From: Candidatus Microgenomatus sp.
GTDB taxonomy: Bacteria > Patescibacteriota > Microgenomatia > UBA8517
Reading direction: 5' to 3'
DNA: 64,000 nucleotides
Assembly (NCBI GenBank): GCA_020724585.1
Contig: DYGS01000001.1
Coordinates: 559,027-623,026, forward strand
Part shown: positions 1,518-57,763 of the stretch, one piece after another
Layout: each line of letters begins with the position of its first letter
Numbering within the stretch: the stretch's first letter is position 1
Notes under the pieces: model-generated
Told to the model about the DNA's origin: nothing
The model's database searches: none
Seen by the model: only the letters and a program-made list of their open reading frames with translations
Translations under genes and position numbers: made by a program

Positions 1518-1794
1518 TTTTTTACAGCTCCACCAAAGTTATTCTATAAACCAGGAAGATCTGCAAGAGAGATTTAACCAGGAAGGCGGAGAGGTTTTAA
1601 AAATTATCAAAGAATGGGAAAATAAACTATGTAGTCAAAGCGAAAAAGCTGGCTATGGCAGTTTTACATCAAACTTATCTGAAAAATTTTGGGCAGAAGT
1701 TAGGAAAATGCTCCCACTAATAGACTACATTGGGATTATAGCTAAAAAGGAGCCACAGTTTAGTATTAAAAAAATAAATCTTTCAAAGGTTTAG
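1456..1794 (+). CDS. hypothetical protein (112 aa from internal Met of ORF 1312..1794)
   Basis: Upstream part of the track ORF overlaps the minus-strand surface-protein gene. Taking the internal ATG at 1456 avoids the overlap. Convergent with cysS; no recognisable motif. Confidence 0.3.
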   Translation: MTKYKEYFDRMINDNKEIFDNFLQLHQSYSINQEDLQERFNQEGGEVLKIIKEWENKLCSQSEKAGYGSFTSNLSEKFWAEVRKMLPLIDYIGIIAKKEPQFSIKKINLSKV

Positions 1795-3024: not shown

Positions 3025-3036
3025 ATCTATTTATAA

Positions 3037-3519: not shown

Positions 3520-3561
3520 GTGCTATTGTATCACTTTGGCCATAAACTTAGAATTTATAAC

Positions 3562-6837: not shown

Positions 6838-7308
6838 CTAACTTCTGGATTCTAATTTCTGTTTTACGATATTTGCAACCAATGTCCCATCCATGCTTGG
6901 TGCTTTTGCTTTAATCACTCCCATTACTTTCCCCATGTCTTTTATGCCGGAAGGATTTACCAAGTTTATTGATTCTTCAACCAACTTGCCAATCTCTTCC
7001 CTAGATAATTCCGGCGGCAAAAACTGTTGCAGTATTTTTAGCTCATCTTTTTCATTTTGCAAATTTTCACTTGCTTGGAGATTTTGAGTTTTTGAATCTT
7101 GGATTTTTGTCAATATTTCTATTGCCTCTCTTCTCTTTTTTATTTCCCTTCTTATAACTCTTTCTTCATCTTTATCTTCAAGATCTTTTTGCAGTCTTAT
7201 TTTTTCGTAATTAAACTCAGACAAAAGCATTCGAAGTGTTGAAAGTAACACCACATCTTTTGCCTTCATGGCCTCCCCAATTTTATTCTGTAGTGTGTTT
7301 GCTATCAT
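6838..7308 (-). CDS. yqeY: GatB/YqeY domain protein
   Basis: AMKAKDVVLLSTLRMLLSEF and overall 150-aa YqeY pattern. Confidence 0.75.
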   Translation of the reverse strand: MIANTLQNKIGEAMKAKDVVLLSTLRMLLSEFNYEKIRLQKDLEDKDEERVIRREIKKRREAIEILTKIQDSKTQNLQASENLQNEKDELKILQQFLPPELSREEIGKLVEESINLVNPSGIKDMGKVMGVIKAKAPSMDGTLVANIVKQKLESRS

Positions 7309-7640
7309 GTTTTCTTTAATATATCATCCTCATCTTCCAGTTTCCCTGCCAACAAATGCCAATGTACATGCATAACTTCTTGATATTTACCCCCATTAAA
7401 TATAAGCTTATAACCATCAACAATCTCAAACTTTTTAATAACTTCTTGAGCAGTTTTCGTAATTGATAATATTTCTGAATCCAATTCCATAAAACTAGCT
7501 ATATGTTTTTTGGGGCAAACTAAATAATGATGTTCTGCAACTGGAGCAATAGTTTTAAAAACTATCACATCCTCATTCTCAAAAATAATATTACTAGGAA
7601 TTTCCTTTTTAACAATTTTACAAAACACACAATCTTCCAT
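7305..7640 (-). CDS. HIT-family (histidine triad) nucleotide hydrolase
   Basis: CVFCKI N-terminus, HxHxH triad HVHWHLL. Confidence 0.8.
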   Translation of the reverse strand: MEDCVFCKIVKKEIPSNIIFENEDVIVFKTIAPVAEHHYLVCPKKHIASFMELDSEILSITKTAQEVIKKFEIVDGYKLIFNGGKYQEVMHVHWHLLAGKLEDEDDILKKT

Positions 7641-7642
7641 AA

Positions 7643-8836
7643 TTACTTTAAGTTTTTTAATATATCATCAAAGCTTAAGAGTTCGACTTTATCTGAGTTT
7701 CTTTCTTTAAATTCAATTTTGTCTCCAGTTTTGTCTGATACTACAAGTCTTACTGGAATACCAATCAAATCACAATCTTTAAACTTTTCACCCGCACCAA
7801 CATCTCTATCATCAAATAACACATCTAAGTTATTCGCTTTTAGTTTTTCATAGGTTTCCTCACCCTTACCATTTAAACCAACCAAATGTACATCAAATGG
7901 AGTTATTTCTTTACTCCAAATTATTCCTTTATCATCATGTGATACTTCTACCCAAGTACCCATAACACGAGTTGGTCCAATACCGTAACTACCAAACCAT
8001 ACAGGTTTCTTATCTCCATTTTTATCAGTGAAATACATTTTCATTTTCTCCGCATACCAAGTTCCAAGAGGAAAAATATTACCAACTTCAATTGATTTTG
8101 CACTCGTATAATCATTTTTATCTCCCTTAAAAATCTCTTCATTTATAGCTTCGCTATCATCATCTTTCCAATAAATAGTATCTTCCCCAGCTTTACTTAA
8201 AACTTGAAACTCATGGGTAAATTTATCTGTAAACACCCCGCCTGATGCCTTTGCAATCTTAAAGTTAAAACCTAATCTTGTAAATATTTTTGAGTATGCT
8301 CCTTTTACTTTTTCATAATATTCCATCAAATCTTCTTCAGTTGTATGAGCAGAATATAGATCTTTCATCATAAACTCACGGCCCCTCAAAATTCCTGATT
8401 TTGCTCTTAACTCGTTTCTAAATTTAGTTGAAAAATGATAGACAGCTTGAGGCAAATCTTTGTAGCTATTAATAGTCTTACGAAGCAGATCCATTACAAT
8501 TTCTTCATGGGTAAAAGATAGTACATACTCCTTATCGTGGGCATCTTTTAATTTATACATAATCTCATTTGCTTTATCCCATCTACCTGTTTCACCCCAA
8601 ATTGATTTTGGATGCAAAAGTGGCATAAGCATTTCTTGCCCACTAACTGCATTAATTTCTTCTCTGATTATTTGATTAATTTTATTTACCACTTTCCAGC
8701 CCATCGGAAGTAATGTCCAACTGCCTGCCATGAGTTGATCCATAAATCCTGCTCGAACCAAAAGTCTATGATTCACACTTTCAGCATCTTTAGGCACTTC
8801 TTTTTTAGTTTTTGGAAATAATTGACTCTGCAACAT
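7643..8836 (-). CDS. proS: prolyl-tRNA synthetase, minimal form without editing insertion
   Basis: Class II motifs, N-terminal LFPKTKKEVPKDAESVNHRLLVRAGF like ProS, C-terminal anticodon-binding domain. 397 aa vs ~570 typical. Confidence 0.85.
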   Translation of the reverse strand: MLQSQLFPKTKKEVPKDAESVNHRLLVRAGFMDQLMAGSWTLLPMGWKVVNKINQIIREEINAVSGQEMLMPLLHPKSIWGETGRWDKANEIMYKLKDAHDKEYVLSFTHEEIVMDLLRKTINSYKDLPQAVYHFSTKFRNELRAKSGILRGREFMMKDLYSAHTTEEDLMEYYEKVKGAYSKIFTRLGFNFKIAKASGGVFTDKFTHEFQVLSKAGEDTIYWKDDDSEAINEEIFKGDKNDYTSAKSIEVGNIFPLGTWYAEKMKMYFTDKNGDKKPVWFGSYGIGPTRVMGTWVEVSHDDKGIIWSKEITPFDVHLVGLNGKGEETYEKLKANNLDVLFDDRDVGAGEKFKDCDLIGIPVRLVVSDKTGDKIEFKERNSDKVELLSFDDILKNLK

Positions 8837-8858
8837 AAAGCTAATCTTATTTATTGTA

Positions 8859-9947
8859 TCATCTATTAAATGAATTTAGGAAATTGGTAATTGAGCCTGC
8901 AGAAATTAAACCTCTTATATCTTTAACAGTGATTGCAAGTATCAAGGCCAGGAGTATAATCATTCCAATAGTATGAATAGCCGCCTCAACTTTAGGTAAA
9001 ACTTTTTTTCCAAAAACCCCTTCAATAAATATAAATAGCAACCTTCCCCCATCAAGTGCGGGGAATGGAATAATATTTAAGATTGCCAAGTTTACTGAGA
9101 TAACCCCAACCAGATTAATAAGCGAAAGTATTCCCGTTTTAGCCGCTTCTGAAGTTACAGCAAAGACCCCAACAGGACCTGAAACATCCTTTGGCGCATC
9201 TCCTTTTGCCAAATCTGTAAAAATAGATGCAAACCCTTTCACAACAGTCCCGCCCCAAAAGAACGCATCCTTAAAACCATAATAAACTCCATAAAATGGC
9301 CTTTGCCAATAAGGAGGATAATAAATTTGAGTCGTAGATATTGAAACACCTAATGGACCCTGTCCTTCGGGTGGTGACATTCTTGGTACGATAGTCACTT
9401 TCCTGTCATCAATTTCCAATGTAATTTTTTTGCCCTTCTTGCTCTCCACCTTTGATATAAATTCAGAAACGCTTTTAACTTCCTCTCCGTCAACTTTTCT
9501 AATAACATCTCCAACCAAAATATTGGCAGTTAAGGCGGGAGAATCAGGCGCAACAGCAACAACTTTAACCTCGTCAGTTTGTCTTGGGATGCCCGAAAAC
9601 GAATAAACAACAGCAAAGGCAAATACCGCCAGCAAAAAATTCATAATAACACCCGCAACTATGACTGCGGTCTTTACTCTCTTGCTTTTATAAAAAAATG
9701 ACCTCTCTTTATTTATAATTTGATCTTCCGTCATCTCACCATGAAGTTTCACAAACCCTCCAAAGGGCAAAAGATTTATAGAATATATTGTTTCACCTAT
9801 CTTCTTACCAAAAATTCTTGGGGGCAAGCCAATCCCAAATTCTTCAACCCAAATACCATTTCTTTTTGCAACCCAAAAATGTCCAAATTCATGGACTAAA
9901 ACCAGAATTGAAAGAACTAAAATAAAAACCAGGATTGACCAAAACAT
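8859..9947 (-). CDS. rseP: RseP-type site-2 zinc metalloprotease (M50) with PDZ domain
   Basis: HEFGH near N-terminus, 4 TM segments, central PDZ, LDGG motif. Confidence 0.85.
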   Translation of the reverse strand: MFWSILVFILVLSILVLVHEFGHFWVAKRNGIWVEEFGIGLPPRIFGKKIGETIYSINLLPFGGFVKLHGEMTEDQIINKERSFFYKSKRVKTAVIVAGVIMNFLLAVFAFAVVYSFSGIPRQTDEVKVVAVAPDSPALTANILVGDVIRKVDGEEVKSVSEFISKVESKKGKKITLEIDDRKVTIVPRMSPPEGQGPLGVSISTTQIYYPPYWQRPFYGVYYGFKDAFFWGGTVVKGFASIFTDLAKGDAPKDVSGPVGVFAVTSEAAKTGILSLINLVGVISVNLAILNIIPFPALDGGRLLFIFIEGVFGKKVLPKVEAAIHTIGMIILLALILAITVKDIRGLISAGSITNFLNSFNR

Positions 9948-9970
9948 ATACTTTAGAGTATATTTAAAAT

Positions 9971-10267
9971 ATGTTAACCAAACAAGATCTAAATGCTATC
10001 GGAAATTTAATTGAATTAAAATTTGAATCGAAATTAGAAGAAAAGTTAGAATCGAAATTAGAAGAAAAGTTAGAATCGAAATTAGAGCTAAAACTTTTAC
10101 CCATTCGAAACGATATTAAAAATCTACAAAAAGATGTAAAAAAGTTGAGAAAAGATTTAACCACAACAATCAATTTTTTTGATAATAATAACCTGAAATT
10201 ACAAAACCAAATAGATCAAACTAGAAAGCATGTTGGGCTTGAAGAAGTGAATTTCGGATATGCTTAA
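9971..10267 (+). CDS. small repeat-containing coiled-coil protein (KLESKLEE repeats)
   Basis: 98-aa ORF spanning a 24-nt tandem DNA repeat. Sits on the opposite strand between two minus-strand genes, so uncertain. Confidence 0.3.
   Translation: MLTKQDLNAIGNLIELKFESKLEEKLESKLEEKLESKLELKLLPIRNDIKNLQKDVKKLRKDLTTTINFFDNNNLKLQNQIDQTRKHVGLEEVNFGYA
10025..10092. repeat. tandem 24-nt repeat (gaatcgaaattagaagaaaagtta) x ~2.8
   Basis: Direct reading of sequence. Confidence 0.8.
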
Positions 10268-12219: not shown

Positions 12220-13011
12220 CTAGCAACTAGCAACTAAATTTTCAGCCAAACAGGAAATTGTAACTGGTCCAACCCCACCTGGGACAGGGGTAATAAAAGA
12301 TGCTTTATTCTCGCATCTTGGATCAATATCTCCAAATGGACTACCTACATCGATTAAGATAGCATCGTTTTTAACCATATCATCACTAATCAAATTAGCA
12401 ACACCTACTGCTGATATTAAAACCTGACCTTTAAAGGTTACACCCTTAAAGGGTGTTGTTTTGTCATATTGATTTACTACATATCTCATTTTTTGAAGTT
12501 TTTTAACCAGTGGCTTTCCAACCATACCAGAAGCACCAACTACATCAATTTCCTTTACTAACTTCTTTGTTTCAAAAAGTGCAAGCTTTAAAATTTCAAG
12601 GATTGCTTTAACAGTAGGTGGAATAAACTTACTATCTTCCCTCATTCCATCAACATCTTTAGTCAGTGCAATTGAATTTATAATTTGTAATTTGTAATTT
12701 GTAATTTTCGCCGGAAACGGAAGTTGGATCATTATTCCATTTACTGTTTTATCCTCGTTTAAAGATTTAATAAGACTTAAAACTTCACTTTTTTCTACAT
12801 TTTCAGGTAATCGATATATATCAAGTTCTGCTCCTATTTCTTCGATGTATTTTTTCTTCAAATTTACATACAAAATACTAGCAGTATCATTTCCAACTAA
12901 AATAGTTGCCATTTTAGGATACTTTCCTTTTTCTTTTAAGAGTTTTACATCACTAGTAAGTAATGTTTTCTTTTTAAGTGAATACGATCTACCGTCAAAA
13001 ACCACAGCCAT
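12220..13011 (-). CDS. folD: bifunctional methylenetetrahydrofolate dehydrogenase/cyclohydrolase
   Basis: MAVVFDGRSYS start (track ORF extends to 13056), IMIQLPFPAKI, KDVDG, PVPGGVGPVT. Carries the in-frame repeat KITNYKLQIINS. Confidence 0.85.
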   Translation of the reverse strand: MAVVFDGRSYSLKKKTLLTSDVKLLKEKGKYPKMATILVGNDTASILYVNLKKKYIEEIGAELDIYRLPENVEKSEVLSLIKSLNEDKTVNGIMIQLPFPAKITNYKLQIINSIALTKDVDGMREDSKFIPPTVKAILEILKLALFETKKLVKEIDVVGASGMVGKPLVKKLQKMRYVVNQYDKTTPFKGVTFKGQVLISAVGVANLISDDMVKNDAILIDVGSPFGDIDPRCENKASFITPVPGGVGPVTISCLAENLVASC

Positions 13012-18969: not shown

Positions 18970-20943
18970 TTACTTTTCTTCTTTCTTGGGTAGTTTCCAT
19001 GTAGCATATTTACATTTTGGATAGTTACTGCATCCGTAAAACTTGCCTCTTTTTGATTTTTTAACTATTAATTCTCCAGTTTTGCACTCAGGACAATTAA
19101 ATCCAGTTTTTTCAACAAATTTTTCAATATATTTACAATCTGGGAACTTATCACAACTGATAAACTTACCAAACCTCCCAACCCTAATAACTAACTCTCC
19201 CTCTTTGCAGTCTGGACATTTTCTACCAATCTTCTCTGTCTCAATTTTTACTCTGTTTGCATTTTTTTCAACAATCTCAATTTTTTTTGAAAATGGCCCC
19301 CAAAACTTTTTCATTTCATCTTGCCACTTTATTTCACCTTTTGATATTCTATCCAAATCATCTTCCATTTCTGCGGTAAATTTATAATCAAGTTCCTCTG
19401 GAAAGTTTTTAACTAAAAATTCAGTTACTGCAAAACCAACTGTTGTTGGAACAAAGGCTTTTTCTTGTTTTTCTACATAACCTCTTGCCTGAATTGTTGA
19501 AATGATTGGTGCATATGTTGAAGGTCTACCAATTCCCAACTTCTCAAGTGTTTTAATTAAAGAAGCTTCATTATACCTTGCAGGAGGTAATGTAAACTTT
19601 TGTTCTCCCCAAACTTTTTCTTTTGCAAGACTTTCATTTTCTTTTAACTGAGGCAATATAATAACTTCTTTGTCAATTGAGAATAGTTTCCTCCAACCAT
19701 CAAAAATCATTATTTGTCCGCCTGATCTAAGTAGATGTTTTTTGCTGTTTTCTGTTTCGCTTTCAACATCAATTATTGTTTCACTATAAATTGCCGGTTT
19801 CATCTGACAGGCAACAAATCTTTTCCAAATCAGCTCATATAATTTTTGTTGTGCTTGTTCTAATTTAGCATTTAGCATTTGTAATTTAGCATTGACGGCC
19901 GTAGGCCGTATCGCCTCATGTGCTTCCTGCACATTTTTACTTTGCTTTTTAAAGTAGTTTGGTTTTTCAGGAAGATAATTTTCCCCATATTCTTTCTCTA
20001 TAAAATCCCTGACATTATTAATTGCTTGTATGGATATATTTACTGAGTCAGTTCTGTGATATGTGATAAGTCCCTCTTCATATAATTTTTGTGCAACACT
20101 CATTGTTCTTTTTGCACTCCAGCCAAAAAGTCTTGCTCCAGTTTGTGTTAATGTAGAAGTTGTAAATGGTGGATATGCACTCTTTTTAACTTCTTTTTTA
20201 CTAATTCTTAAAACTTTAAATTTTGAATTTTCCAAATCAGATATTACACTATCTGCGTCCTTTTTATTATTAATACTTTCTTTGATTAAAGTGGTAGTAA
20301 TTATCTTGTTTTTGTCTTCACTTGAATAAAGTTTTGCAAATATTTCCCAGTACTCTTCTGGTTTAAATTTTTTAATTTCATCTTCTCTTTCAACTATTAA
20401 ACGAACTGCAACAGATTGGACACGCCCTGCAGATAAACCTCTTCTAACTTTTTTCCAAAGAAGTGGCGACAATTTATATCCCACCAACCTATCCAATACC
20501 CTTCTAGCAATCTGCGCATCAACTAAATTTTGATTAACAACAGTAGGGTGACTTATTGCTTCTTCAACAGCCTTTTGTGTTATCTCATGGAAGCTTATGC
20601 GTTTCAATTTATCATTTGTAATTTGTAATTTGGCATTTGCAAGCATGTCTCTAACATGCGAAGCGATGGCTTCTCCCTCGCGGTCCGGATCGGTCGCAAT
20701 AAAAACTTGCTCGGCTTTCTTAGATTTAGACTGTAAATTTTTCACTATAGCTTTTTGTTTTTCAATAATTTGATAGTCTGGTTTAAAATTATTCTCAATA
20801 TCAATTGAAAGCCGGCTTTTAGGAAGGTCCATAATGTGCCCACGAGTGGAATCAACTAAATACTCGCTACCTAAAAATTTAGATAGTGTCTTGGCCTTTG
20901 TCGGACTTTCTACAATTATTAAATTCATAATTACTTGCCTCAA
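18970..20943 (-). CDS. topA: DNA topoisomerase I
   Basis: Toprim IVESPTKAKT, active-site region, C-terminal Zn ribbons (CPDCKEGELV..., CPECKTGELI...). Carries two in-frame repeat insertions (ANAKLQITNDKLKR; AVNAKLQMLNAKLEQ). Confidence 0.9.
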   Translation of the reverse strand: MRQVIMNLIIVESPTKAKTLSKFLGSEYLVDSTRGHIMDLPKSRLSIDIENNFKPDYQIIEKQKAIVKNLQSKSKKAEQVFIATDPDREGEAIASHVRDMLANAKLQITNDKLKRISFHEITQKAVEEAISHPTVVNQNLVDAQIARRVLDRLVGYKLSPLLWKKVRRGLSAGRVQSVAVRLIVEREDEIKKFKPEEYWEIFAKLYSSEDKNKIITTTLIKESINNKKDADSVISDLENSKFKVLRISKKEVKKSAYPPFTTSTLTQTGARLFGWSAKRTMSVAQKLYEEGLITYHRTDSVNISIQAINNVRDFIEKEYGENYLPEKPNYFKKQSKNVQEAHEAIRPTAVNAKLQMLNAKLEQAQQKLYELIWKRFVACQMKPAIYSETIIDVESETENSKKHLLRSGGQIMIFDGWRKLFSIDKEVIILPQLKENESLAKEKVWGEQKFTLPPARYNEASLIKTLEKLGIGRPSTYAPIISTIQARGYVEKQEKAFVPTTVGFAVTEFLVKNFPEELDYKFTAEMEDDLDRISKGEIKWQDEMKKFWGPFSKKIEIVEKNANRVKIETEKIGRKCPDCKEGELVIRVGRFGKFISCDKFPDCKYIEKFVEKTGFNCPECKTGELIVKKSKRGKFYGCSNYPKCKYATWKLPKKEEK

Positions 20944-26197: not shown

Positions 26198-26329
26198 ATG
26201 ATCGCATCATTTTGTCTTGGTGTGGCGGCAGGAATGTTAATCATTGCGATTCGCAGAGACATGCCGATGTGGTTCCCTATGCTTTTCGGAACGCTTGTCG
26301 GACTCGGTGTCTTAGCATTAACATTCTAA
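26198..26329 (+). CDS. 43-aa hydrophobic two-helix peptide (MIASFCLGVAAGMLIIAIRRDMPMWFPMLFGTLVGLGVLALTF); candidate membrane toxin-like small protein
   Basis: Manual translation. Strong SD AAGGAGGA 7 nt upstream of ATG; GC-rich relative to surroundings; followed by an intrinsic terminator; not in ORF track (<60 aa). Confidence 0.4.
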   Translation: MIASFCLGVAAGMLIIAIRRDMPMWFPMLFGTLVGLGVLALTF

Positions 26330-26340
26330 CCCCCAACCAA

Positions 26341-26380
26341 CCCCTTCAGAACAATAACCAAAATCTGAAGGGGATTTTTA
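26341..26380 (+). terminator. rho-independent terminator (CCCCTTCAGA...TCTGAAGGGG + T-run)
   Basis: 10-bp GC-rich stem, 13-nt loop, ATTTTTAT tail. Confidence 0.5.
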
Positions 26381-29204: not shown

Positions 29205-29287
29205 GCCAAGGTGGCGGAGTGGTCAATCGCACCTGTCTGTAGAACAGGCGACGCAAGTCTACCTAGGTTCGAATCCTAGCCTTGGCA
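29205..29287 (+). tRNA. tRNA-Tyr (anticodon GUA), class II with long variable arm
   Basis: Acceptor GCCAAGG/CCTTGGC, anticodon stem CCTGT/ACAGG with loop CTGTAGA, long variable arm, T arm TAGGT TCGAATC CTAGC. Confidence 0.8.
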
Positions 29288-29350: not shown

Positions 29351-29365
29351 CGAATCCTAGCCTTG
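29351..29365 (+). repeat. 15-nt duplicate of the tRNA-Tyr 3' end (CGAATCCTAGCCTTG) 64 nt downstream of the tRNA
   Basis: Identical to 29270-29284; abuts GC-rich repeat copy A. Confidence 0.7.
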
Positions 29366-29366
29366 T

Positions 29367-29517
29367 CAGTGCTGTGGTACGAAAAAATTCGAAATCAATA
29401 TGCGAAAGCGTATTGATTGTTATTTTCCGATATTTCAAATCGTTTTAGCTCGTCCCGCCAAGCGGGACTCGCTTCCCGCTCCGGCTCGGCCTATTGGCCT
29501 CGCCTTCGCAAAGTGCT
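29367..29517 (+). repeat. GC-rich palindromic dispersed repeat, copy A (~150 nt; contains hairpin GTCCCGC-caa-GCGGGAC)
   Basis: Near-identical inverted copy at 32431-32574; shorter copies at 41848-41935 and 45648-45729. Confidence 0.8.
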
Positions 29518-30824: not shown

Positions 30825-31355
30825 TTATAGGATTGCAAAAGCACGAATTGGAGATCCATCACCATCTTTAATTTTAAGCGGGACACCATAAAACATAAAC
30901 TCTTTGTTTTCAGGTAGCTTGTCCATGTTTATTAAATCCGTAATTGTTAGTATTCCAGATTGTAATAATTTTCTTTCTAGCTCAACATCAAGTTCTGCAG
31001 TATTACCCACAACTACAAATAATGGATTAGCTTCTTTTAATTTTTCAAATAAACTTAAATCCAATTTTCCTTCTTTAAACGCAAGGCCAATATTTTTTGG
31101 AAATTCTGAGTTGATGTCCACCAAAACTGTTTTGCCAATATATTTTTCAAGAGGAATATTATCAATTGTTTCACCCTTTTCATCCATGTGAGCAAAGGCA
31201 TCTGCATGAGTTCCAATATGTGTAGACATTTGTAAATATCTTAATCTCCAACCCTCTTTGTCTAAATCGTGAATTTGCTTAATGTGGACTTCAGGATCAC
31301 CCGGGTATACTGGCATCCCATCAAAAAGTGGTTGGGACAAATCAATTACTTGCAT
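30825..31355 (-). CDS. cyclase-family protein (kynurenine formamidase-like)
   Basis: HxGTHxDxPxH motif STHIGTHADAFAH. Confidence 0.75.
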   Translation of the reverse strand: MQVIDLSQPLFDGMPVYPGDPEVHIKQIHDLDKEGWRLRYLQMSTHIGTHADAFAHMDEKGETIDNIPLEKYIGKTVLVDINSEFPKNIGLAFKEGKLDLSLFEKLKEANPLFVVVGNTAELDVELERKLLQSGILTITDLINMDKLPENKEFMFYGVPLKIKDGDGSPIRAFAIL

Positions 31356-31436
31356 AAGGTTATTTTAACATAAAAATACTTAAGAACTCTCCACATTATT
31401 GCTTTTTGTGGAGAGTTCTCACAACGACGGGTTTGG

Positions 31437-31850
31437 TTACAGGAACATGCCGAGGATGATTCCAAGCGCAACTTGCTTGAAGATGTAATATTGGCTGAGG
31501 CCAATAAATTCATAATCATCCAAACGATAGTTCACATCATGCTGACTGAAGTAGAAACCTACCGCGTATCCAAGACCTGTGACAAGCCACTTCACCGGAT
31601 CGATGAGGCTTTGCAGGTATGCATGCGCGAGCAAGAAACTGACGACAGTTGCAAGAACGCTGAACCATGTCCATAAACCAACCTTGACTGTCCAATCATC
31701 GTCGCGTGCAAACTTGTATTTGCGGAAGATGATTTTGTATGGACCTACCAAGAGGTATTTCCACACAATGAAGATGGGCCACAAAAATGCTTCAACCCAA
31801 TCTTCACGACTATTGCCTTTCTTAACTTGTGTTGTCATTTGATCCTCCAA
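31437..31850 (-). CDS. hypothetical membrane protein in a locally GC-rich (~45%) segment
   Basis: 137-aa ORF, 3 predicted TM helices, Trp-rich; composition differs sharply from flanks. Confidence 0.45.
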   Translation of the reverse strand: MEDQMTTQVKKGNSREDWVEAFLWPIFIVWKYLLVGPYKIIFRKYKFARDDDWTVKVGLWTWFSVLATVVSFLLAHAYLQSLIDPVKWLVTGLGYAVGFYFSQHDVNYRLDDYEFIGLSQYYIFKQVALGIILGMFL

Positions 31851-32400
31851 TTGATCTTGACAGGTGTGCTAATAAGCCAGACGCTTACTATGGGAGGTAG
31901 TATATCAGTCTGTTAGATAGTAACGCAACTTTTGGAGTGTTACTCTTTCTGCCCATTCACATGGCGTAAGCCACCACCCTTGTAGCTTTGGGGTGTTTTG
32001 TGTTGGGCAGGATTCCCTGTTAAGGGAATATTTCAGGAGCAATAGTTTTGTCTGTTCTGCCTTCTAACCAAGTGCTGTGCCGAAGGCACTTTGGAGTTGT
32101 TTTATAGCACTTGGGTAGTTGCCCTCTAGGGCAAATTGCGACTGAAATTGTAATTGCGGTACCGCAACCGCAATCCGTTAGCCGTAATGCGGCTACCTGG
32201 CCGTATCTACGGCCAGTTTACGGACTGCGTGAGGTACTTGACGGTTACCCGTCAAACCCCGTTATGGGTATTTACTGTGTTTGTGTTATGGCTATATTCA
32301 AGATCGTTTGAATTTATTCAAATGTGAATTGAACATAGACATATGATTTTTAGGATAAAAATCATATAATATCACTGCAAAGCAGTGAAATTTGGCTCGC
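31851..32400. other. ~550-nt GC-enriched non-coding region packed with short perfect hairpins; possible structured RNA or replication/recombination site
   Basis: No ORF >65 aa. Hairpins include TTGCGGTACCGCAA, GGCCGTATCTACGGCC, GACGGTTACCCGTC, TCCCTGTTAAGGGA, GTGCCGAAGGCAC. Confidence 0.3.
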
Positions 32401-32430
32401 AAGCCAAATTTAAAATCGCGTCTTTGAAAC

Positions 32431-32574
32431 AAGCGGAGGCGAGGCCAAAGGCCGAGCCGGAGCGAGAAGCGAGTCCCGCTTGGCGGGACGAGCTAATACG
32501 ATTTGAAATATCGGAAAATAACAATCAATACGCTCTCGCATATTGATTTCGAATTTTTTCGTACCACAGCACTG
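32431..32574 (-). repeat. GC-rich palindromic dispersed repeat, copy B (inverted relative to copy A)
   Basis: Reverse complement matches 29367-29517 with a handful of mismatches. Confidence 0.8.
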
Positions 32575-32605
32575 AGTAGGACATTGGCAAAAATTAGATA
32601 GCTCA

Positions 32606-33172
32606 TTACCTAATAATTGTTTCGAGTAATTCAGGAAATTTTTCTGTTTTCATTTCTTCATAAATAAAATGTCCTTTATCTTTAAACTTGTGGACCTCAA
32701 TATCTGGCAACACTTTTAATATTAAATCAACTGATTTATATATATCTTCATCATCGTCTTCTGATACAAATAAATGTATTTCTTTTATTCTGTTTTTTAA
32801 TTCTGAATCGATTTCAAATTCAAAAAAGTCTGTTGTTTTAACTCTGTCAGGATCAAGCCATGGAGCAACTAATATTAGTTTATCAATTTGTTTTTTGTTT
32901 TCTGTTAACCATCTAAGCAGAAATCCACCACCACAACTATAACCAACTAAAATAGATTCTTCGTTGATGTCAAATCTTTCAAATTCCTTTTTCCATTTTT
33001 TATAATCAGGTTTATATGCATCTGGCATTTCAGGAGTTTGTGTAAAAGTACCTTTAATTAATAATTGTTTTTGAAGCCAAGGAAACCAGTGGCTGTTAGA
33101 AAGTGACGGATACAAATCACTAAAATATTCTTCTTCCTCACAACTTCCATGAATAAGTATTGCTGTTTTCAT
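32606..33172 (-). CDS. RBBP9/YdeN-like alpha/beta serine hydrolase
   Basis: ILIHGS start, HWFPWL, nucleophile elbow GYSCGG, LVAPW. Confidence 0.65.
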   Translation of the reverse strand: MKTAILIHGSCEEEEYFSDLYPSLSNSHWFPWLQKQLLIKGTFTQTPEMPDAYKPDYKKWKKEFERFDINEESILVGYSCGGGFLLRWLTENKKQIDKLILVAPWLDPDRVKTTDFFEFEIDSELKNRIKEIHLFVSEDDDEDIYKSVDLILKVLPDIEVHKFKDKGHFIYEEMKTEKFPELLETIIR

Positions 33173-33233: not shown

Positions 33234-34115
33234 ATGATAAAAAGTATTGCATATTCACAAAACTTATTAGTTGATGACGAATTGATCGAAAAACTTGTTT
33301 CACTTTCGAATATTGACCAAAACGATACTGTTTTAGAAATTGGAGCAGGTAAAGGAATAATAACTAAAGAACTTTTAAAAAAGGCAGGTTGTGTTGTGGT
33401 TTTTGAAATTGATGAGGAATTTGTCAGTATTCTTAAATCAATTTCTGATAATAAACTTGTAGTTAAAAACGGAAACTTCTTAGATTTTGATTTGCCAAAA
33501 GACAAGTATAAAGTTTTTGCAAACATACCATTTAATAAAACTTCTGAAATTATAAAAAGATTATTGTTTTCTAATAATCCTCCAACTAATACATATTTAG
33601 TTATTCAAAAAGAAGCAGTTGGGAGGTTTGCTGGAAAACCATTTGATAGCAAAAACGGTTTGCTTTCAGTTCTTTTTAATCCATGGTTTGAATTTGAAGT
33701 TACATATAAATTTAACAGAACAGATTTTAAACCAATACCGAATGTTGATACAGTTTTGTTAAATATTAAATTAAGAAGTACCCCAAAAGTTTTAGATCAA
33801 GACAAAGAAGCATATAGAGATTTTGTAGTTTTTGGATTTAACCAAATGGCTCCAAACATACTTGAAGGGTTATCAAAAGTTATTAATAAAAATCATATTA
33901 TAAAATTATTCAACAAACTAAACATTTCAACTGACTTAAAACCAACTGAATTAGATAAAGATATTTGGATTGAAATTTTTGAATTACTTAAATATCAAAA
34001 ACAAAACAAAAGAAACTTAATCAAAAACTCATATATTAAATGGGTTAAACAACAAGAAAATATGGAAAAAATAAATAGGACTAGGGTTGATACAGATTGG
34101 AAAAAGTTTAAATAA
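33234..34115 (+). CDS. Erm/KsgA-family rRNA adenine N6-methyltransferase (Erm-like)
   Basis: YSQNLLVDDELIEKLV, LEIGAGKGIITKEL (motif I), NIPFNKTSEII (NIPY motif). Resembles ErmC along the full length including the C-terminal domain. Confidence 0.7.
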   Translation: MIKSIAYSQNLLVDDELIEKLVSLSNIDQNDTVLEIGAGKGIITKELLKKAGCVVVFEIDEEFVSILKSISDNKLVVKNGNFLDFDLPKDKYKVFANIPFNKTSEIIKRLLFSNNPPTNTYLVIQKEAVGRFAGKPFDSKNGLLSVLFNPWFEFEVTYKFNRTDFKPIPNVDTVLLNIKLRSTPKVLDQDKEAYRDFVVFGFNQMAPNILEGLSKVINKNHIIKLFNKLNISTDLKPTELDKDIWIEIFELLKYQKQNKRNLIKNSYIKWVKQQENMEKINRTRVDTDWKKFK

Positions 34116-39853: not shown

Positions 39854-40020
39854 TGTGTCACTGATTTTTATTCCACCAAATTTCAACCCTTGGACAATTC
39901 TCCAGATCTTATACTTTTTAGGGTGTCTTTTTTTCATGACTACCTCGTCTATATTCCAATTAACTAGCATTAGTTAAATATAAAGCTTTTTGGTACAATA
40001 ATCTAGATTTTAAATAAAAA

Positions 40021-40111
40021 GGGTGTCGTTCAATGGTAAGCAGAGCTTGGCCATTGAACTAGTTAGATGTTCAATGGTAAACAGAGCTTGGCCATTGAAC
40101 TAGTTAGATGA
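40021..40111 (+). repeat. tandem duplication of the tRNA-Trp 5' segment: [GGGTGTC][GTTCAATGGTAA(G/A)CAGAGCTTGGCCATTGAACTAGTTAGAT] x2; each unit forms an 8-bp-stem hairpin TTCAATGG...CCATTGAA
   Basis: 40021-40038 identical to tRNA positions 40114-40131; unit repeated at 40028 and 40069. Confidence 0.8.
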
Positions 40112-40182
40112 AAGGGTGTCGTTCAATGGTAGGACATCGGTCTCCAAAACCGATAATGATAGTTCGATTCTATCCACCCTTG
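40112..40182 (+). tRNA. tRNA-Trp (anticodon CCA)
   Basis: Acceptor AAGGGTG/CACCCTT, D arm GTTC..GGAC, anticodon stem TCGGT/ACCGA with loop CTCCAAA, T arm GATAG TTCGATT CTATC, discriminator G. Confidence 0.75.
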
Positions 40183-40433: not shown

Positions 40434-41747
40434 TTAGACTTTTGGAGAGCAAATCTTTTGTTTTTCTTCAAAAATTTCATTCTTCTTTTTCTTGTAAACT
40501 TCAGGCTCAACAATATGCTCCAAATATCCATCAAGTAAGGTTTCCTCTTGATCCTCAAGATTTGAAATTTTTGATTGCAATTCTATTAATCTTTGAGAAG
40601 CAGATTGCTCTTCAATCAGTTTGTCTTTCTCATATAGATCCATGAATATTTTATATTCCTCGTCATCTATAGAGCATTTTAAGACCATGTTTCTAATCTG
40701 CTTCTCAAGTTCTACATCTGTTATGTATTTCTGTCTACAGTTCCCTAAACTTTTTGTGCATCTATAATAATTAAAAACAACTTTCCTGTTGGTTCTTTTG
40801 TAATATCTAGGATGGGTTTCAGCTGTAATAGCCGAACCACACTCAGCACACTTTATAAAACCGGTAAAAGGAAAGTTGTGTCCTTTAAGTCTCGGTCTTG
40901 CTAGTCTCTCCATTTGCTTTTGGACTTTGTTGAAAAGGTCTTTTGAAATGAAAGTTTTATGTGATCCTTTATACAAAACTCCGTTGTACAAAAACGTACC
41001 AACGTAAAATTTATTAGATAGCATATTTTTGACAGTATCAACTTTTAATTCCCTTTCACCTTTTCTATATATTCCACACTTAAATAACATTCTGGCAATT
41101 TCAGAATATGAAGTACCACCTTCTGCAAATTTTTCAAAAGCCTTTTTAACATATTTGGATTTTTCATCATCTACTTCAATTGATTTAATTTTCAAATCGT
41201 TGAAATATCCAATAGGAGCAAGTTTTGGCCAAACACCACGCCTTAGTTTTTCACGCAATCCTCGCTTTACATTTTCGCTTAAATTGTCAACATAATACTT
41301 GCTCTGTCCAAATGCGATTGAAAGCATAAACTTACCCTGTGGAGTATTATCAAACCAAAAAGTTGGGAACTTCAAGTCTAAAAGTTTGCCGGTATCTAAT
41401 AAATAAACAATTCTTCCGCCATCTATTGAATTTCTGGCAAGTCTATCTGGATGCCAAGAAAGAATTGCATTAGCTTCTCCTTTTTCAATTCTTTTTAAGA
41501 CCTCGGCAAACTTTTCTCTTCCAGGTTCTTTTGCGGTTTTACTTTCAGTTACAAAATCAATGACTTGAAGTTTTTCCCTTGAAGCAAACTCTTTTAATTC
41601 AGATAACTGTCCGTCAATAGACAACACCTGTCTATCTTTTTCATCAGTTGATTTTCGGCAATAACAAATGTATTTAATCATGTGGACAGAGTTCTCCTGT
41701 TTTCTAAAATTTTCGAGTTTTGTTTTTCTTCTTTTTTGTTTTGGCAA
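40434..41747 (-). CDS. large serine recombinase (phage-integrase/transposase type)
   Basis: N-terminal resolvase domain with catalytic Ser in YCRKSTDEK. Central recombinase domain. Zn-ribbon CAECGSAI...YYRCTKSLGNC. C-terminal coiled coil. Confidence 0.85.
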   Translation of the reverse strand: MPKQKRRKTKLENFRKQENSVHMIKYICYCRKSTDEKDRQVLSIDGQLSELKEFASREKLQVIDFVTESKTAKEPGREKFAEVLKRIEKGEANAILSWHPDRLARNSIDGGRIVYLLDTGKLLDLKFPTFWFDNTPQGKFMLSIAFGQSKYYVDNLSENVKRGLREKLRRGVWPKLAPIGYFNDLKIKSIEVDDEKSKYVKKAFEKFAEGGTSYSEIARMLFKCGIYRKGERELKVDTVKNMLSNKFYVGTFLYNGVLYKGSHKTFISKDLFNKVQKQMERLARPRLKGHNFPFTGFIKCAECGSAITAETHPRYYKRTNRKVVFNYYRCTKSLGNCRQKYITDVELEKQIRNMVLKCSIDDEEYKIFMDLYEKDKLIEEQSASQRLIELQSKISNLEDQEETLLDGYLEHIVEPEVYKKKKNEIFEEKQKICSPKV

Positions 41748-41847: not shown

Positions 41848-41935
41848 TGTACCGAAAAACTCGTACCGCTCTATTGTCGTAGCTCCGGCTCGTCACTTCG
41901 TTCCTCGCCTCCGCAAACGCCGGATCGAATTGTCC
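41848..41935 (+). repeat. GC-rich dispersed repeat, shortened copy D
   Basis: ...GTACCGAAAAACTCG...CCGGCTCG...CTCGCCTCCGCAAA...GGATCGAAT aligned to copy A. Confidence 0.5.
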
Positions 41936-45126: not shown

Positions 45127-45549
45127 ATGAAACTCCCCTGGTATGTTGTTCCAAAAACTGCCTTATTTGACTGGATTCCCTTGCTCGGAAAGTCTACTGC
45201 AAATAGTATTGGGCCATTTATCTTTATACCAACTAAAATATATATAGACTTAAAATCAGAAAATCCTAATCCCAAACACATTGCACTTCTAATTCATGAA
45301 GAAACTCACAGAAAAAGGCAAAAACAAATAGGATTTTTAAAGTTTGGAATGAAATACTTGTTTAATTCAAACTTTCGCTTTCAAGAAGAATTGATAGCCG
45401 TAAAAGAAGCTATGAAATATTTAAAGAAAAATAAAATAAAATTTGATTTTGACAAAAACTCAAAATTTCTTTCAAGTTATGTATATCTTTGGCCAGTCTC
45501 TAAAAAATATGCTGAAAAGGAACTAAAAAGAGTTTGGAATGAATTGTAG
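45127..45549 (+). CDS. HExxH-motif putative zinc metallohydrolase (DUF45/YgjP-like)
   Basis: ALLIHEETHRKRQKQ; family assignment weak. Confidence 0.35.
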   Translation: MKLPWYVVPKTALFDWIPLLGKSTANSIGPFIFIPTKIYIDLKSENPNPKHIALLIHEETHRKRQKQIGFLKFGMKYLFNSNFRFQEELIAVKEAMKYLKKNKIKFDFDKNSKFLSSYVYLWPVSKKYAEKELKRVWNEL

Positions 45550-45647
45550 CAGGGAGTTCATTAATTTCTACAAATACATTGTTCGCGCTGGGCTGGTTGG
45601 GGCAAGAACAATGTCAGGCGTTAGCCTGACCAAATCGCGCGCAAAAA

Positions 45648-45729
45648 AGCGGAGGCGAGGCCAAAGGCCGAGCCGGAGCGGAAGGTTCGGGTTATTCGAA
45701 TTGAGTTCGAATTTTTCGATACAACATTG
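45648..45729 (-). repeat. GC-rich dispersed repeat, internally deleted copy C
   Basis: AGCGGAGGCGAGGCCAAAGGCCGAGCCGGAGCG identical to copy B; flanking palindrome GTCAGGCTAACGCCTGAC. Confidence 0.6.
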
Positions 45730-45760: not shown

Positions 45761-46885
45761 TCATTTTAATTTCCAATATGTAGTTGAATTTGTAATCACT
45801 TTTTGTCCCTCTCCATTTATATATGAATTGTGAACCGATTCGATAGGATCACTATTACCATCAACATGCGGAATAAATCCAAATTCACCACCTGAAACTG
45901 TCATAATAAATTCATCTCTTTTGAATAAATCCTGTGTCATGTAATGAAGCCCCTGAAAGTGAAGTGGAACACTGTCAGTTATATCGTCCTGTTCATAATA
46001 CTCTGAAAAAGCAAAAACCACATCTTTTCCTCTAAATACATTAGACAGGGCTCTGAGCGTATCAATTGCAAGATGTCTTTCTTCATGCAGGATATAACCA
46101 ATATGGACAATCAATCTACCATCTCCCACCCTCTTGGCAATTTCTTCCAAACCTTTTTCATCTTTCATGTCCAAAACACTAATTTCATATCTTTCCTCTT
46201 CAATTCCAGCATTTTGCAAATTCTCTCCCGCTGTCTCAAAAACCGCAGGATTTATATCAGTAACTAATGCTCGCACATCCGGATATGCTAATAAAAATTT
46301 TTTTGAAAAATTTCCTGATCCCGATCCTAATTCTAGAAGAATTTGTCTGTCAGGAAATTTATCACGCAAATCTCTAACAATACTATTAGATGCAGGTGAC
46401 ATCAAGGCGTCTGATGCTAGATGGTTTATGACAGGATTTCTGTATACATTCCCACCAAATCCATACGAGATTTCCCCCCTCACTATTTTGGCAAAGTTTT
46501 CAAGTAAACTCTTTTCATAACCGGAAATCAAGAGGGCAAAGGAAGCGCTATGTAATAATGGGGCCTCATATTGGCCACCAAACTCTCTCAAAAACCTCTT
46601 TTTATCCCAACCAGCAACTATTGCATAAAGTTGAAGATTTGCAAGCTCATGAGTTAGTTTTTTAAAATGTATCAGCTCTTGCGGTGAAGGTATTACCCCT
46701 CCATTTACCATCTTGAACTGTTCCAAAAATTTTAAAGCGCCAGTATAAACCTTTCCTTCTTTATCAAATTCTTGATCTTTAAGCTCATCAAGTCCAGAAA
46801 GTAAATAGTGGGCAATAGCTCCAGACAAAACTAGCTGAGGACTTAATTTTTCTCTCATTTCTGCTCTTTTGGCTATTTCTTGCAT
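45761..46885 (-). CDS. class I SAM-dependent (O-)methyltransferase with N-terminal dimerisation-like domain
   Basis: Motif I LELGSGSGNF; acidic motif II VLDMKDE; COMT-like architecture. Confidence 0.65.
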   Translation of the reverse strand: MQEIAKRAEMREKLSPQLVLSGAIAHYLLSGLDELKDQEFDKEGKVYTGALKFLEQFKMVNGGVIPSPQELIHFKKLTHELANLQLYAIVAGWDKKRFLREFGGQYEAPLLHSASFALLISGYEKSLLENFAKIVRGEISYGFGGNVYRNPVINHLASDALMSPASNSIVRDLRDKFPDRQILLELGSGSGNFSKKFLLAYPDVRALVTDINPAVFETAGENLQNAGIEEERYEISVLDMKDEKGLEEIAKRVGDGRLIVHIGYILHEERHLAIDTLRALSNVFRGKDVVFAFSEYYEQDDITDSVPLHFQGLHYMTQDLFKRDEFIMTVSGGEFGFIPHVDGNSDPIESVHNSYINGEGQKVITNSTTYWKLK

Positions 46886-56425: not shown

Positions 56426-57763
56426 CTATGCCCATTTAACTTTAACTAATTTATCTTTTTCAATTTCAGGGCTAACTAAAAAACCCTGCAGATCAGTTCT
56501 TCCTATCAATATACTGTAACGAAGTAATTTTCTATCTGCAACCGTAACTTTTGTTTGCATCTTTTTACCAGCAAGTTTTAAAATTACCTCCAAAACGGGT
56601 CTTTCTTCCTCTCCAAGCGATGATAATTTTTTTCTTGTTGTAATTATCTTATTTTTCTTTAATAGACCAAGTTTTTTAGCTACCCCTACATCGATAGCAG
56701 ATGACCATGCACCGGTATCAATCTTCGCTAAAAACTTTTTCCACTTTCCAAATTGATCCTTAATAAATACATCTTCAACTGCCTTTACTACTGGAGTCTC
56801 CTCTCTAAATTTAACCCTATCGGAAAATTTACCGGCAAAAAGAGCTTTAGAAATTTTTATCCCGTGAGAAACATTTATAACTGCCAAATCATCTATCCTC
56901 TCAAGCCTTTTTTTTAATCCTTCATTATTAGCAAGTTGGATAGATAGACCGGGCTGGGCATTTAACTCAATTACCATGGGGCCTTTTTCAGGATGAAGCA
57001 CAATATCAATACCTGCATATCCTAAACCTGATGCCATTTGAGCCTTGACAGCCGTTTCCAAAATCAAATTCCATTGAGGTATTTTTATGCCGTTTAATTT
57101 GCGCAAAGTTCCAGGTTTGAACACAATTTGTCTGTTGTGTTGGATAGCATTTGTGGTTATTCCATAAGCCAAATCAATCCCCAACCCCAATGCTCCCTGA
57201 TGAAGATTGGCCCTTCCCCCTGATTCTTTAGTTGGAAGCCTAAGCATTGCCATTACAGGAATTTTATTAAAGACAATTATTCTAATATCCGGTGTTCCCC
57301 TGTATGCATATTTCCTAAAAACTTTATGTCTGCCTACATATTCTTGGATAAAAGCAACATCAGGTTCATTTCCTATTGAATAAGCCCCCTCTAAGATATC
57401 CAAACAATGCAATTTCAAATCCTCTGCATTAATTTTAATTTTTGAAGATGTCATCCAATTTATCATTTGTAATTTATCATTTGTAATTTTAAGTCGTTTC
57501 TTAACGACGATGATTCCTTCTCCGCCCAAACCTCTTGAAGGTTTGACTGCAAATGAACTGGGCAAACTCTCCCAATTAAAATTATCAACATCGGAATATT
57601 TTTTGAATTTTGCTAAAACTTTTGGATGTGCAATTTTATTTTTCTTCAAAACTTTATATGTCTGTAATTTAGAATTGGCGATCTTTTTTGCCTCACGAGA
57701 GTTATACTTTGCTGTATAAAGCGTATTTCTGGCATTTAAACCCAAAATTGAAGAAATTTTCAT
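56426..57763 (-). CDS. fusion protein: RimK-related alpha-L-glutamate-ligase-like ATP-grasp + C-terminal retropepsin-like aspartyl peptidase (DUF785-like)
   Basis: N-terminal ILGLNARNTLY typical of RimK-related ligases. ATP-grasp core. C-terminal D-T-G-A aspartyl protease motif KIDTGAWSSAIDVG. Carries in-frame repeat LKITNDKLQMINW. Confidence 0.6.
   Translation of the reverse strand: MKISSILGLNARNTLYTAKYNSREAKKIANSKLQTYKVLKKNKIAHPKVLAKFKKYSDVDNFNWESLPSSFAVKPSRGLGGEGIIVVKKRLKITNDKLQMINWMTSSKIKINAEDLKLHCLDILEGAYSIGNEPDVAFIQEYVGRHKVFRKYAYRGTPDIRIIVFNKIPVMAMLRLPTKESGGRANLHQGALGLGIDLAYGITTNAIQHNRQIVFKPGTLRKLNGIKIPQWNLILETAVKAQMASGLGYAGIDIVLHPEKGPMVIELNAQPGLSIQLANNEGLKKRLERIDDLAVINVSHGIKISKALFAGKFSDRVKFREETPVVKAVEDVFIKDQFGKWKKFLAKIDTGAWSSAIDVGVAKKLGLLKKNKIITTRKKLSSLGEEERPVLEVILKLAGKKMQTKVTVADRKLLRYSILIGRTDLQGFLVSPEIEKDKLVKVKWA

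Follow-up and report, generated by a model that had tools for sequence, protein, structure and literature searches.

Bacterial noncoding RNAs longer than about 500 nucleotides (nt) with intricate conserved folds are rare, those known being OLE, GOLLD, ROOL, HEARO and a few others, and each of these large RNAs has pointed to unusual biochemistry, most recently to RNA-only cages. OLE RNA is an ornate molecule of ~610 nt from extremophile Firmicutes, and its partner gene, oapA, follows it. The RNA biology of bacteria of the candidate phyla radiation (CPR) is almost unexplored. ROOL (RF03087) averages 581 nt and is frequently found next to tRNA genes and within or close to mobile or prophage-like DNA, although other locations occur as well (PMC5737381), and oligomerization of both ROOL and GOLLD has been demonstrated by cryo-electron microscopy (cryo-EM) (PMC12286853). 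We analyzed a 64,000-nt stretch of a Candidatus Microgenomatus genome (contig DYGS01000001.1; this whole stretch is called the window below), in which a GC-enriched block of small perfect palindromes had been noted at positions 31851 to 32400 in a preliminary description. We propose, with a probability of roughly 0.7, that this block is the central part of a ~630-nt, highly structured noncoding RNA gene on the + strand, extending from ~31936 to ~32566. By size and context, although not by homology, ROOL and GOLLD appear to be its closest analogues.

The predicted RNA shares with ROOL and GOLLD the size class, the many helices and multistem junctions, the lack of an associated protein-coding gene and the proximity to tRNA genes and mobile DNA. 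Often it is located immediately upstream of tRNA genes, within variable regions where recombinases, repeats and homing-endonuclease-like genes abound, and at four loci a co-oriented tRNA gene is found 30 to 800 nt downstream (L012, Ser; L014, Pro; L023a, Glu; L023b, Gln; homologous contigs and loci are designated by L numbers), the expectation by chance being ~2% per locus as a rough estimate that assumes one tRNA per 20 kb. An antisense tRNA is found near the RNA in L021. In contrast to ROOL and GOLLD, whose covariance models it does not match even at E values up to 10, the new RNA has CPR/Woesebacteria-like hosts rather than Firmicutes, rumen or lake lineages, and it includes a terminator module that can be reused as well as a hypervariable cluster of hairpins. 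With OLE it has in common its length and a complex conserved fold, and in the window it happens to adjoin a small membrane-protein gene, but no Rfam OLE match was obtained, and the membrane-protein gene is divergent, lies upstream of the 5' end of the RNA and is absent from all RNA loci beyond the group formed by the window and L003 to L005. A further class of large RNA, confined to ultra-small, host-dependent CPR bacteria, would be a concrete target for structural and functional work.

Counting perfect hairpins with stems of at least 5 pairs and loops of 2 to 7 nt, we found 16 of them in positions 31851 to 32400, compared to 2.6 ± 1.7 in 300 dinucleotide shuffles (shuffle maximum, 7), and this density was the highest among all 550-nt stretches of the window. 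Every palindrome quoted in the preliminary description was located in the sequence, the two nearest the repeat having been quoted as their reverse complements (Table 1). The GC content was 0.43 to 0.49 over positions 31400 to 32500, compared to 0.345 for the whole window. The excess is thus real, but rather than marking the block as foreign, as had been suggested, it fits a structured RNA, since such an RNA within an AT-rich genome looks like that; the region around the block does look island-like. Folded as RNA, the block gave z = -8.2 on the + strand and z = -10.2 on the - strand, and the full RNA gave -245.8 kcal/mol (z = -8.5). In line with the earlier statement that the block is noncoding, its open reading frames (ORFs) were short and no reading frame was conserved. 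The limits of the block have to be redrawn: its left 85 nt (31851 to 31935) are foreign to the RNA and constitute the putative promoter and 5' untranslated region (UTR) of the neighboring membrane-protein gene, and the unit reaches ~32566; what had been set apart as a separate repeat copy B is the 3' terminator module of the RNA itself.

Relatives of the RNA were found in ~25 loci, in Woesebacteria-like CPR genomes and groundwater metagenomes. A 25-nt bait taken from a conserved hairpin retrieved 5 loci from species-representative genomes, two of them located on different contigs of one Candidatus Woesebacteria metagenome-assembled genome (MAG). With a slightly shorter exact bait, 13 metagenome loci were obtained (Hainich aquifer, Rifle AMFJ assembly and JGI samples), and three more came via "hypothetical proteins" that gene callers had placed on the antisense strand. 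Searches by nhmmer and with a covariance model recovered 21 true copies, and scanning the 64-kb window with the covariance model yielded a single full copy. Unlike single-copy universal housekeeping RNAs, the RNA occurs in several copies and subtypes, with two on the 10 kb of L023 and at least two in one MAG, on two contigs. The two copies of L023 differ strongly in their central cluster, L023a resembling the window and L013 and L023b resembling L021 and L025, which indicates old paralogues rather than recent transposition. Some copies are truncated, L023a lacking the 5' part and L020 consisting only of the 5' part, in which H1 is retained with a different sequence, CUGGC/GCCGG; in L026 the whole H1-H2-H3 subdomain is replaced by a simple hairpin, CCCUCAC…GUGAUGG, so that H2 and H3 are missing. 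The CPR-type RNA is also carried by contigs labeled as uncultured Gammaproteobacteria (L007 and L008) or as an archaeon (L009). L007 also encodes a KsgA/Erm-like protein 89% identical to that of window positions 33234 to 34115. These are probably CPR contigs misassigned to bins.

A literature search found no description of this RNA family. At gathering thresholds, Rfam 15, whose models include those of ROOL, GOLLD, OLE, HEARO, raiA and group I and II introns, matched only four tRNAs in the whole window; at E values up to 10, positions 31200 to 32700 gave weak, chance-level matches to terminator-like families at the edges, outside the conserved domain, and at E values up to 0.5, nine homologous loci gave only tRNAs. 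The models of RNase P, transfer-messenger RNA (tmRNA), signal recognition particle RNA and 6S RNA found no match and ARAGORN detected no tmRNA, so that the earlier failure to recognize any of these RNAs, or a group II intron, by eye agrees with the models and no clear Rfam hit explains the block. A resemblance to RNase P (GGCUUAU near the 5' UTR) was rejected because it had no P4 partner and no model match, and a group II intron because there was no Intron_gpII or group-II-D1D4 match and no reverse transcriptase gene in any locus. The predicted family is new in the sense that it is absent from every RNA catalogue searched.

The fold was kept, with compensatory changes and conserved hairpins, in ~20 homologous loci, in support of the structured RNA that the preliminary description had put forward as one candidate. 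For 17 copies aligned with MAFFT, RNAalifold gave a structure of 56 pairs in 8 helices. Within the 5' domain, 94.5% of the cells were paired, compared to 33 to 46% when the partners were slid by 1 to 3 columns, and 16 cells were changed on both sides, a number reached by 0 of 500 shuffles. The covariance model built from this alignment then aligned 21 copies, with 97.6% of the cells of the 5' domain paired and 15 pairs (43 cells) double-changed, again as high in 0 of 500 shuffles. As judged from these comparisons, a multi-helix RNA fold of ~600 nt is conserved and strand-specific.

The RNA strand is, with high probability, the + strand of the window. All 17 of 17 copies of the conserved domain folded more stably in this orientation, and in the consensus helices G·U was in excess over A·C, with counts of 51 versus 18 when the MAFFT alignment was used and 57 versus 8 for the model alignment. 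The four-base loops of H3, H4, H5b and H6 are nearly all G-N-N-A on the + strand (GUAA, GAAA, GAGA, GACA, GUUA and others), while on the opposite strand they read U-N-N-C, which to our knowledge is no stable loop class. Likewise, the tandem G·A motifs (CAG-GA-GCA/UGC-GA-CUG and GCGAG..CGAGC) exist on the + strand alone and turn into U·C/C·U mismatches on the opposite strand. The G·U excess, the GNNA tetraloops and the tandem G·A motifs are strand-specific, RNA-like signals.

On the A/C-rich - strand, ORFs of 84 to 102 amino acids (aa) overlap the conserved domain in 9 loci, gene callers call ORFs of 69 to 102 aa and three "hypothetical proteins" are present in the protein collection, as if the element were a protein-coding gene or pseudogene. 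However, the same DNA is read in different frames at different loci (…LLKYSLSGILP… versus …IAPEIFPLGNPAQ…), the ORF of L011 appears to switch between both frames, the ORFs extend into unrelated flanks, indels are not multiples of three and the window copy has a 45-aa ORF only. Since the T-poor strand lacks stop codons by chance, such antisense ORFs are to be expected, and a coding function is hardly credible. The calls P0005, P0006 and P0007 (69 to 80 aa; L027, L025 and L026) are spurious antisense ORFs of the conserved domain. For annotation, this means that the antisense strand of the RNA is called as "hypothetical proteins," and that assemblers break contigs inside the RNA.

Table 1. Positions in the window of the predicted RNA, its parts and neighboring features
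Feature	Position	Strand	Remarks
Whole predicted RNA	31936-32566	+	Ends set by homology extent among family members
Conserved 5' domain, 215 nt	31936-32150	+	Eight helices, GNNA loops, tandem G·A loop
U-rich 5' leader	31936-31947	+	Consensus GUUUUGUUCU, from upstream sequences of 20 loci lined up on the H2 loop motif
Helix H1 domain	31948-32011	+	Consensus fold
Helix H1	31948-31955/32004-32011; extension 31958-31961/31999-32002	+	
Hairpin H3	31962-31973	+	GUAA loop; inside H1
Hairpin H2	31975-31995	+	Conserved 9-nt loop UGUAGCUUU, then UUUUGUG; inside H1
Hairpin H4	32012-32029	+	AUUCCCU GUUA AGGGAAU
Palindrome TCCCTGTTAAGGGA	32014-32027	+	Equals H4
Multi-branch domain	32031-32147	+	Closed by helix H7
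Helix H7	32031-32043/32135-32147	+	UUUCAG-GA-GCAAU pairs with AUUGC-GA-CUGAAA; tandem G·A internal loop
Helix H5	32068-32077/32105-32114	+	
Hairpin H5b	32077-32089	+	Equals palindrome GTGCCGAAGGCAC; loops GNRA or CGAAG
Hairpin H6	32119-32134	+	Compensatory changes at 3 pairs
Variable hairpin cluster	32150-32270	+	CCG(U/C) and (A/G)CGG words
Palindrome TTGCGGTACCGCAA	32154-32167	+	
Palindrome AGCCGTAATGCGGCT	32180-32194	+	
Palindrome GGCCGTATCTACGGCC	32199-32214	+	
Palindrome GACGGTTACCCGTC	32240-32253	+	
AU-rich spacer	32271-32426	+	Hairpins 32296-32333, 32341-32367, 32372-32388, 32388-32411
Palindrome TCACTGCAAAGCAGTGA	32372-32388	+	+ strand reading of reverse-complement quote
Palindrome TTGGCTCGCAAGCCAA	32392-32407	+	+ strand reading of reverse-complement quote
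3' module (earlier repeat copy B)	32427-32566	+	Type II form
Solo 3' module (earlier repeat copy A)	29375-29509	-	96% identical to 32427-32566
Third, shorter solo 3' module	45600-45722 (start approximate)	+	
Divergent gap	31839-31935	-	Putative promoter TTGCGT-18-TATACT and ~65-nt 5' UTR of membrane-protein gene; outside RNA
Membrane-protein gene	31437-31838	-	133 aa, hydrophobic; GGAGGA Shine-Dalgarno (SD) sequence; 45% GC

The predicted RNA falls into four parts, namely, the 215-nt conserved 5' domain, the variable hairpin cluster, the AU-rich spacer and the ~130-nt 3' module (Table 1). Homology among the copies ends ~12 nt outside helix H1 and, on the other side, at …UUCGAAUUUUUUCGUAC. The U-rich leader, at which homology with the other copies begins, precedes H1 in nearly all of them. 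Variation in H1 is mainly of the U·G type, with C-to-U changes opposite an unchanged G, whereas H4 displays compensatory changes at two pairs, in 5 to 6 sequences, and has a GNNA loop in 16 of 17 copies. The loop of H2 includes the palindrome AGCU, which could be taken only as a hint toward an RNA-only homo-oligomer. A variable U-rich linker, H5, H5b and H6 are enclosed by H7.

The variable cluster, which holds four of the palindromes first noted (as hairpins at 32154-32167, 32179-32195, 32197-32216 and 32238-32255), exists in at least four quite different subtypes across the family. One of its hairpins, GGCCGU…ACGGCC, is nearly universal and has two compensatory double changes in L010. In the hairpin at 32238-32255, the outer pair, U-A in the window, is C-G in L013 and L023a, the pair 32185·32189 is U·G in the window and U-A in L013, and the last hairpin of the cluster has GUAA or GCAA loops. 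CCG(C/U)A words recur with a period of 6 to 8 nt in some subtypes; beyond one 11-nt pair, no tandem or direct repeat family was found in the block. In the otherwise poorly conserved spacer, the hairpin at 32388-32411 is the counterpart of the UUUGGCGAAGCCAAA hairpin of other type II copies.

The 3' module begins with two GCGAG[stem-loop]CGAGC hairpins with tandem sheared G·A pairs (32439-32457 and 32469-32493), followed by a terminator hairpin (32523-32548) and the conserved end UUCGAAUUUUUUCGUAC (32548-32564). Its last ~45 nt resemble intrinsic bidirectional terminators, the hairpin being flanked by an A-run and, on its other side, by a U-run and thus allowing a reading in both directions: a terminator scan reported 32548-32523 on the - strand, with 11 pairs and the tail GTTATTTTCC, and on the + strand side the hairpin, followed by UCGAAUUUUUUCG, likewise shows the combination of hairpin and U-run that defines an intrinsic terminator. 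Unlike such terminators, however, the module is much longer, has two extra G·A hairpins and the conserved UUCGAAUUUUUUCGUAC end and belongs to a repeated sequence family. At the 3' end of L023b, hairpin and U-run lie in the + orientation without an upstream A-run and are one-directional, which is a further point in favor of the + strand. The end module of type I copies differs in sequence from that of type II and is of the same style. A T-loop or tRNA-fragment reading of UUCGAAU at the 3' end was rejected for lack of a flanking stem.

GCGAG..CGAGC motifs occur 7 times in the window versus 0.08 expected. A further GCGAG…CGAGC match, GCGAGGAACGAAGTGACGAGC, with no obvious hairpin, lies at 41888-41908 (-), just upstream of a serine recombinase gene. 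Of the two solo modules (Table 1), the one at 29375-29509 is convergent with a tRNA-Thr/tRNA-Tyr pair, and the one at ~45600-45722 directly follows the + strand gene 45127-45549 and is convergent with 45761-46885, so that all three 3' modules of the window sit between convergent transcription units. L023 has an inverted solo 3' module 1.1 kb upstream of its first RNA copy. We read the 3' module as a putative bidirectional terminator cassette shared by the RNA gene and other transcription units; as an apparently reusable cassette carrying tandem G·A helices, it would represent a repeat family new to these genomes. On this reading, a 132-nt "inverted repeat" around 29.4 to 32.6 kb consists of two terminator cassettes rather than of transposon ends. 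Recombination between the two may occur.

In the window, the RNA would be transcribed rightward from the 100-nt divergent gap, starting at the U-rich leader, while at many other loci it would be produced by read-through from a co-oriented upstream gene ending 5 to 60 nt before it; in both cases transcription would end at the terminator cassette of the 3' module. The RNA would then act in trans as a folded scaffold, with the conserved 5' domain as functional core, and would either bind one or more proteins via its CCG(C/U)A words and G·A helices or self-assemble, these elements and the variable cluster serving as protein-binding or RNA-RNA contact surfaces. It would not regulate the adjacent membrane-protein gene.

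Several observations weigh against an independent + strand RNA gene. The members found are fairly close relatives (mean column identity, 75%), because the bait was an exact 21-nt motif, and most helices therefore vary little. In addition, the model alignment was fitted to the structure, and part of its covariation count stems from this fitting. G·U pairs of the - strand are present in H3 of L009, in H6 of L018, in the GGCCG hairpin of L009 and L021 and in the terminator hairpin 32523-32548, and the C/A-rich central cluster of type I folds better on the opposite strand. Both ends of the RNA were placed by the extent of homology. Finally, no convincing sigma-70-type promoter was found on the + strand in positions 31839 to 31947, and the -10-like hexamers upstream of other loci lie at no fixed distance.

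The lack of a fixed promoter in these scans would also suit a structured 3' UTR or terminator-insulator, cotranscribed on the + strand with the upstream gene and ending or stabilizing its transcript, instead of an independent RNA gene. Consistent with this, in 9 of ~17 loci a co-oriented ORF ends 5 to 113 nt ahead of the element and no terminator separates the two, and one solo 3' module trails an ordinary gene, 45127-45549. We nevertheless consider it unlikely. The upstream neighbor is divergent in the window, L003, L008/L012, L013, L015, L025 and L026, which makes read-through impossible at those loci, the 215-nt multi-helix domain with its invariant loops far exceeds what termination needs, and paralogous subtypes are conserved across genomes.

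To the points against an RNA gene must be added that a repeated DNA element, too, would be expected to have perfect Watson-Crick hairpins, solo 3' modules and truncated copies and to cause contig breaks. The element might be a non-autonomous mobile element related in kind to miniature inverted-repeat transposable elements (MITEs) or repetitive extragenic palindromic (REP) sequences, or the attachment (att), replication origin (ori) or end region of an integrative island, with hairpins that serve, in the DNA, as single-strand intermediates or sites of binding and with any RNA being incidental. It is multi-copy, the loci that have or lack it differ between close relatives, most assemblies break inside it, on the side away from the conserved domain, its palindromes arise from repeated TTGCGG/ACGG words, and serine recombinases and tRNA-end duplications are found nearby. 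With REP sequences, bacterial interspersed mosaic elements and MITEs it shares short perfect intergenic palindromes, several copies per genome, mosaic composition and terminator overlap. It differs from them by a 215-nt nonpalindromic domain with compensatory changes and strand-specific motifs, and its copies within one genome or contig are divergent paralogues of old standing, not identical ones of recent origin. The ends (GUUUUGUUCUCCUGCCC… and …UUCGAAUUUUUUCGUAC) share no terminal inverted repeat by eye; target-site duplications were not looked for. Searching 50,697 phage and 72,556 plasmid records with the block by blastn returned nothing, and three viral-contig scans contained no copy of the RNA. 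Apart from the 3' modules, no complementarity or identity to the flanking DNA stood out, the longest RNA-flank complementarity, as considered for a guide RNA, being 9 to 11 nt versus 9 to 13 nt for same-sense identity. Together with the G·U excess, GNNA loops and tandem G·A motifs, all signatures of RNA rather than DNA, these findings make a DNA-level element likewise unlikely. The phage- or plasmid-type origin, att site, iteron array or packaging site envisaged in the preliminary description finds no support in similarity to phages or plasmids and is at odds with the asymmetric pairing of the two strands; the ends of the element show no terminal inverted repeats by eye, no search for a replication-initiator gene having been made.

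The neighboring 133-aa membrane protein has three homologue clusters only among 5.8 billion proteins, and the contigs carrying these homologues (L002 to L006) all break 170 to 370 nt upstream of the gene. Conservation of its 5' UTR (~65 nt, CCUCCCAUAGUAAGCGUCUGGCUUAUUAGCACAC…UGGAGG) extends to L003 and L004 and even to L006, whose homologue is 80% identical. In L006, the sequence beyond the 5' UTR is unrelated, a good promoter, TTGATA-17-TACAAT, directly precedes the 5' UTR, and no RNA copy was found in the 224 nt available upstream of it. Since the ~65-nt stretch is kept there despite unrelated upstream sequence and a promoter of its own, it is the gene's own 5' UTR. Used as a DNA bait, its motif retrieved nothing from genome or metagenome collections; it belongs to the membrane-protein gene and not to the RNA. 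Within the 5' UTR, an anti-SD sequence, CCUCCC, can pair with the GGAGG of the SD, and a G·U pair in the hairpin UAGUAAGC/GCUUAUUA becomes A-U in L004 and L006; a translational control element is possible from these features.

This anti-SD/SD pairing and the G·U pair in the 5' UTR had first suggested that the block might be a giant 5' leader, riboswitch-like or an attenuator, of the 133-aa membrane-protein gene. The block lies directly upstream of the gene on the - strand, its - strand fold is stable (z = -10.2), and the conserved CCUCCC could sequester the SD of the gene. However, the RNA is present in ~20 loci without the gene, L006 has the gene, a promoter-like site and the conserved 5' UTR without the RNA, the strand tests favor the + strand and the conserved domain stops ~100 nt before the start codon, all of which renders a leader very improbable. 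Nor did the RNA show the constant position, consistent gene set and common strand of a cis-regulatory leader, the genes on both sides of it changing at almost all loci.

Large serine recombinases were found 1 to 3.5 kb from the RNA in L023 (twice), 3 kb from it in L025 and 8 kb from it in the window; most loci have no recombinase within reach. In L023 and L025, the RNA lies ~3 to 3.5 kb from a divergently oriented large serine recombinase. Conceivably, the RNA could be a partner of its integrative islands, either aiding the serine recombinase at tRNA-gene targets, in which case the variable hairpin cluster would be the specificity part that chooses or holds tRNA-gene sites, or self-assembling as an RNA-only particle in the manner of ROOL and GOLLD. 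A conserved scaffold combined with a variable region would fit such a role, but the many loci without a recombinase and the absence of RNA-flank complementarity weaken the proposal, which we regard as quite improbable. If true, it would represent a new RNA-based function in CPR bacteria. The bridge RNAs of IS110 elements differ in that the recombinases near the new RNA are of the large serine type and not DEDD, and in that most loci are without any. No phage structural genes were seen near the RNA loci.

On L023, a gene order is repeated twice (1154-3562 and 7095-10018), consisting of the structured RNA, a small nuclease-like ORF, a tRNA and, on the opposite strand, a large serine recombinase overlapping the tRNA end; the ORFs between RNA and tRNA are one GIY-YIG gene and one 232-aa ORF. 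This suggests that islands are stacked in tandem at tRNA genes. The palindrome ATATGTGGCAGGGTGGGGACTGCCACAT occurs three times on the 10 kb of L023 (2-29, 2089-2116 and 7649-7676) and, inverted, adjoining the tRNA in L021. It is contained in a 60-nt direct repeat of L023 (2065-2124 and 7625-7684, 5560 nt apart), which resembles attL/attR, although the third copy at the contig start suggests a repeated terminator hairpin instead. The palindrome is either a repeated terminator or the att core of serine-recombinase islands.

In the window, a large serine recombinase (40434-41747; Resolvase, Recombinase and Zn-ribbon) lies ~250 nt downstream of a tRNA-Trp, on the opposite strand. The first 21 nt of this tRNA (AAAGGGTGTCGTTCAATGGTA) are duplicated 93 nt upstream, with two 41-nt tandem repeats in between (40018-40131), and an integrated element probably ends at this site. 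The last 18 nt of the tRNA-Tyr (CGAATCCTAGCCTTGGCA; 29270-29287) are repeated with one mismatch 81 nt downstream (29351-29368), just before the solo 3' module, and another fragment, GGCTCGAATCC, is present at ~29519; these repeats look like scars left when DNA was integrated or excised at the 3' end of the tRNA. A GC-rich, 43-codon ORF for a hydrophobic peptide (26199-26329, +) is found in a 400-nt gap that otherwise carries no annotation, and it has both a strong AAGGAGGA site and a terminator that is clean (~26343-26380); here, GGAGGATGACAT recurs as GAGGATGACAT at ~26435. Lastly, a 41-nt AT-rich repeat with ATTTGTA units (TGCAATTGAATTTATAATTTGTAATTTGTAATTTGTAATTT) occurs at 12667-12707, 20598-20638 and 57449-57489, with 83 to 85% identity.

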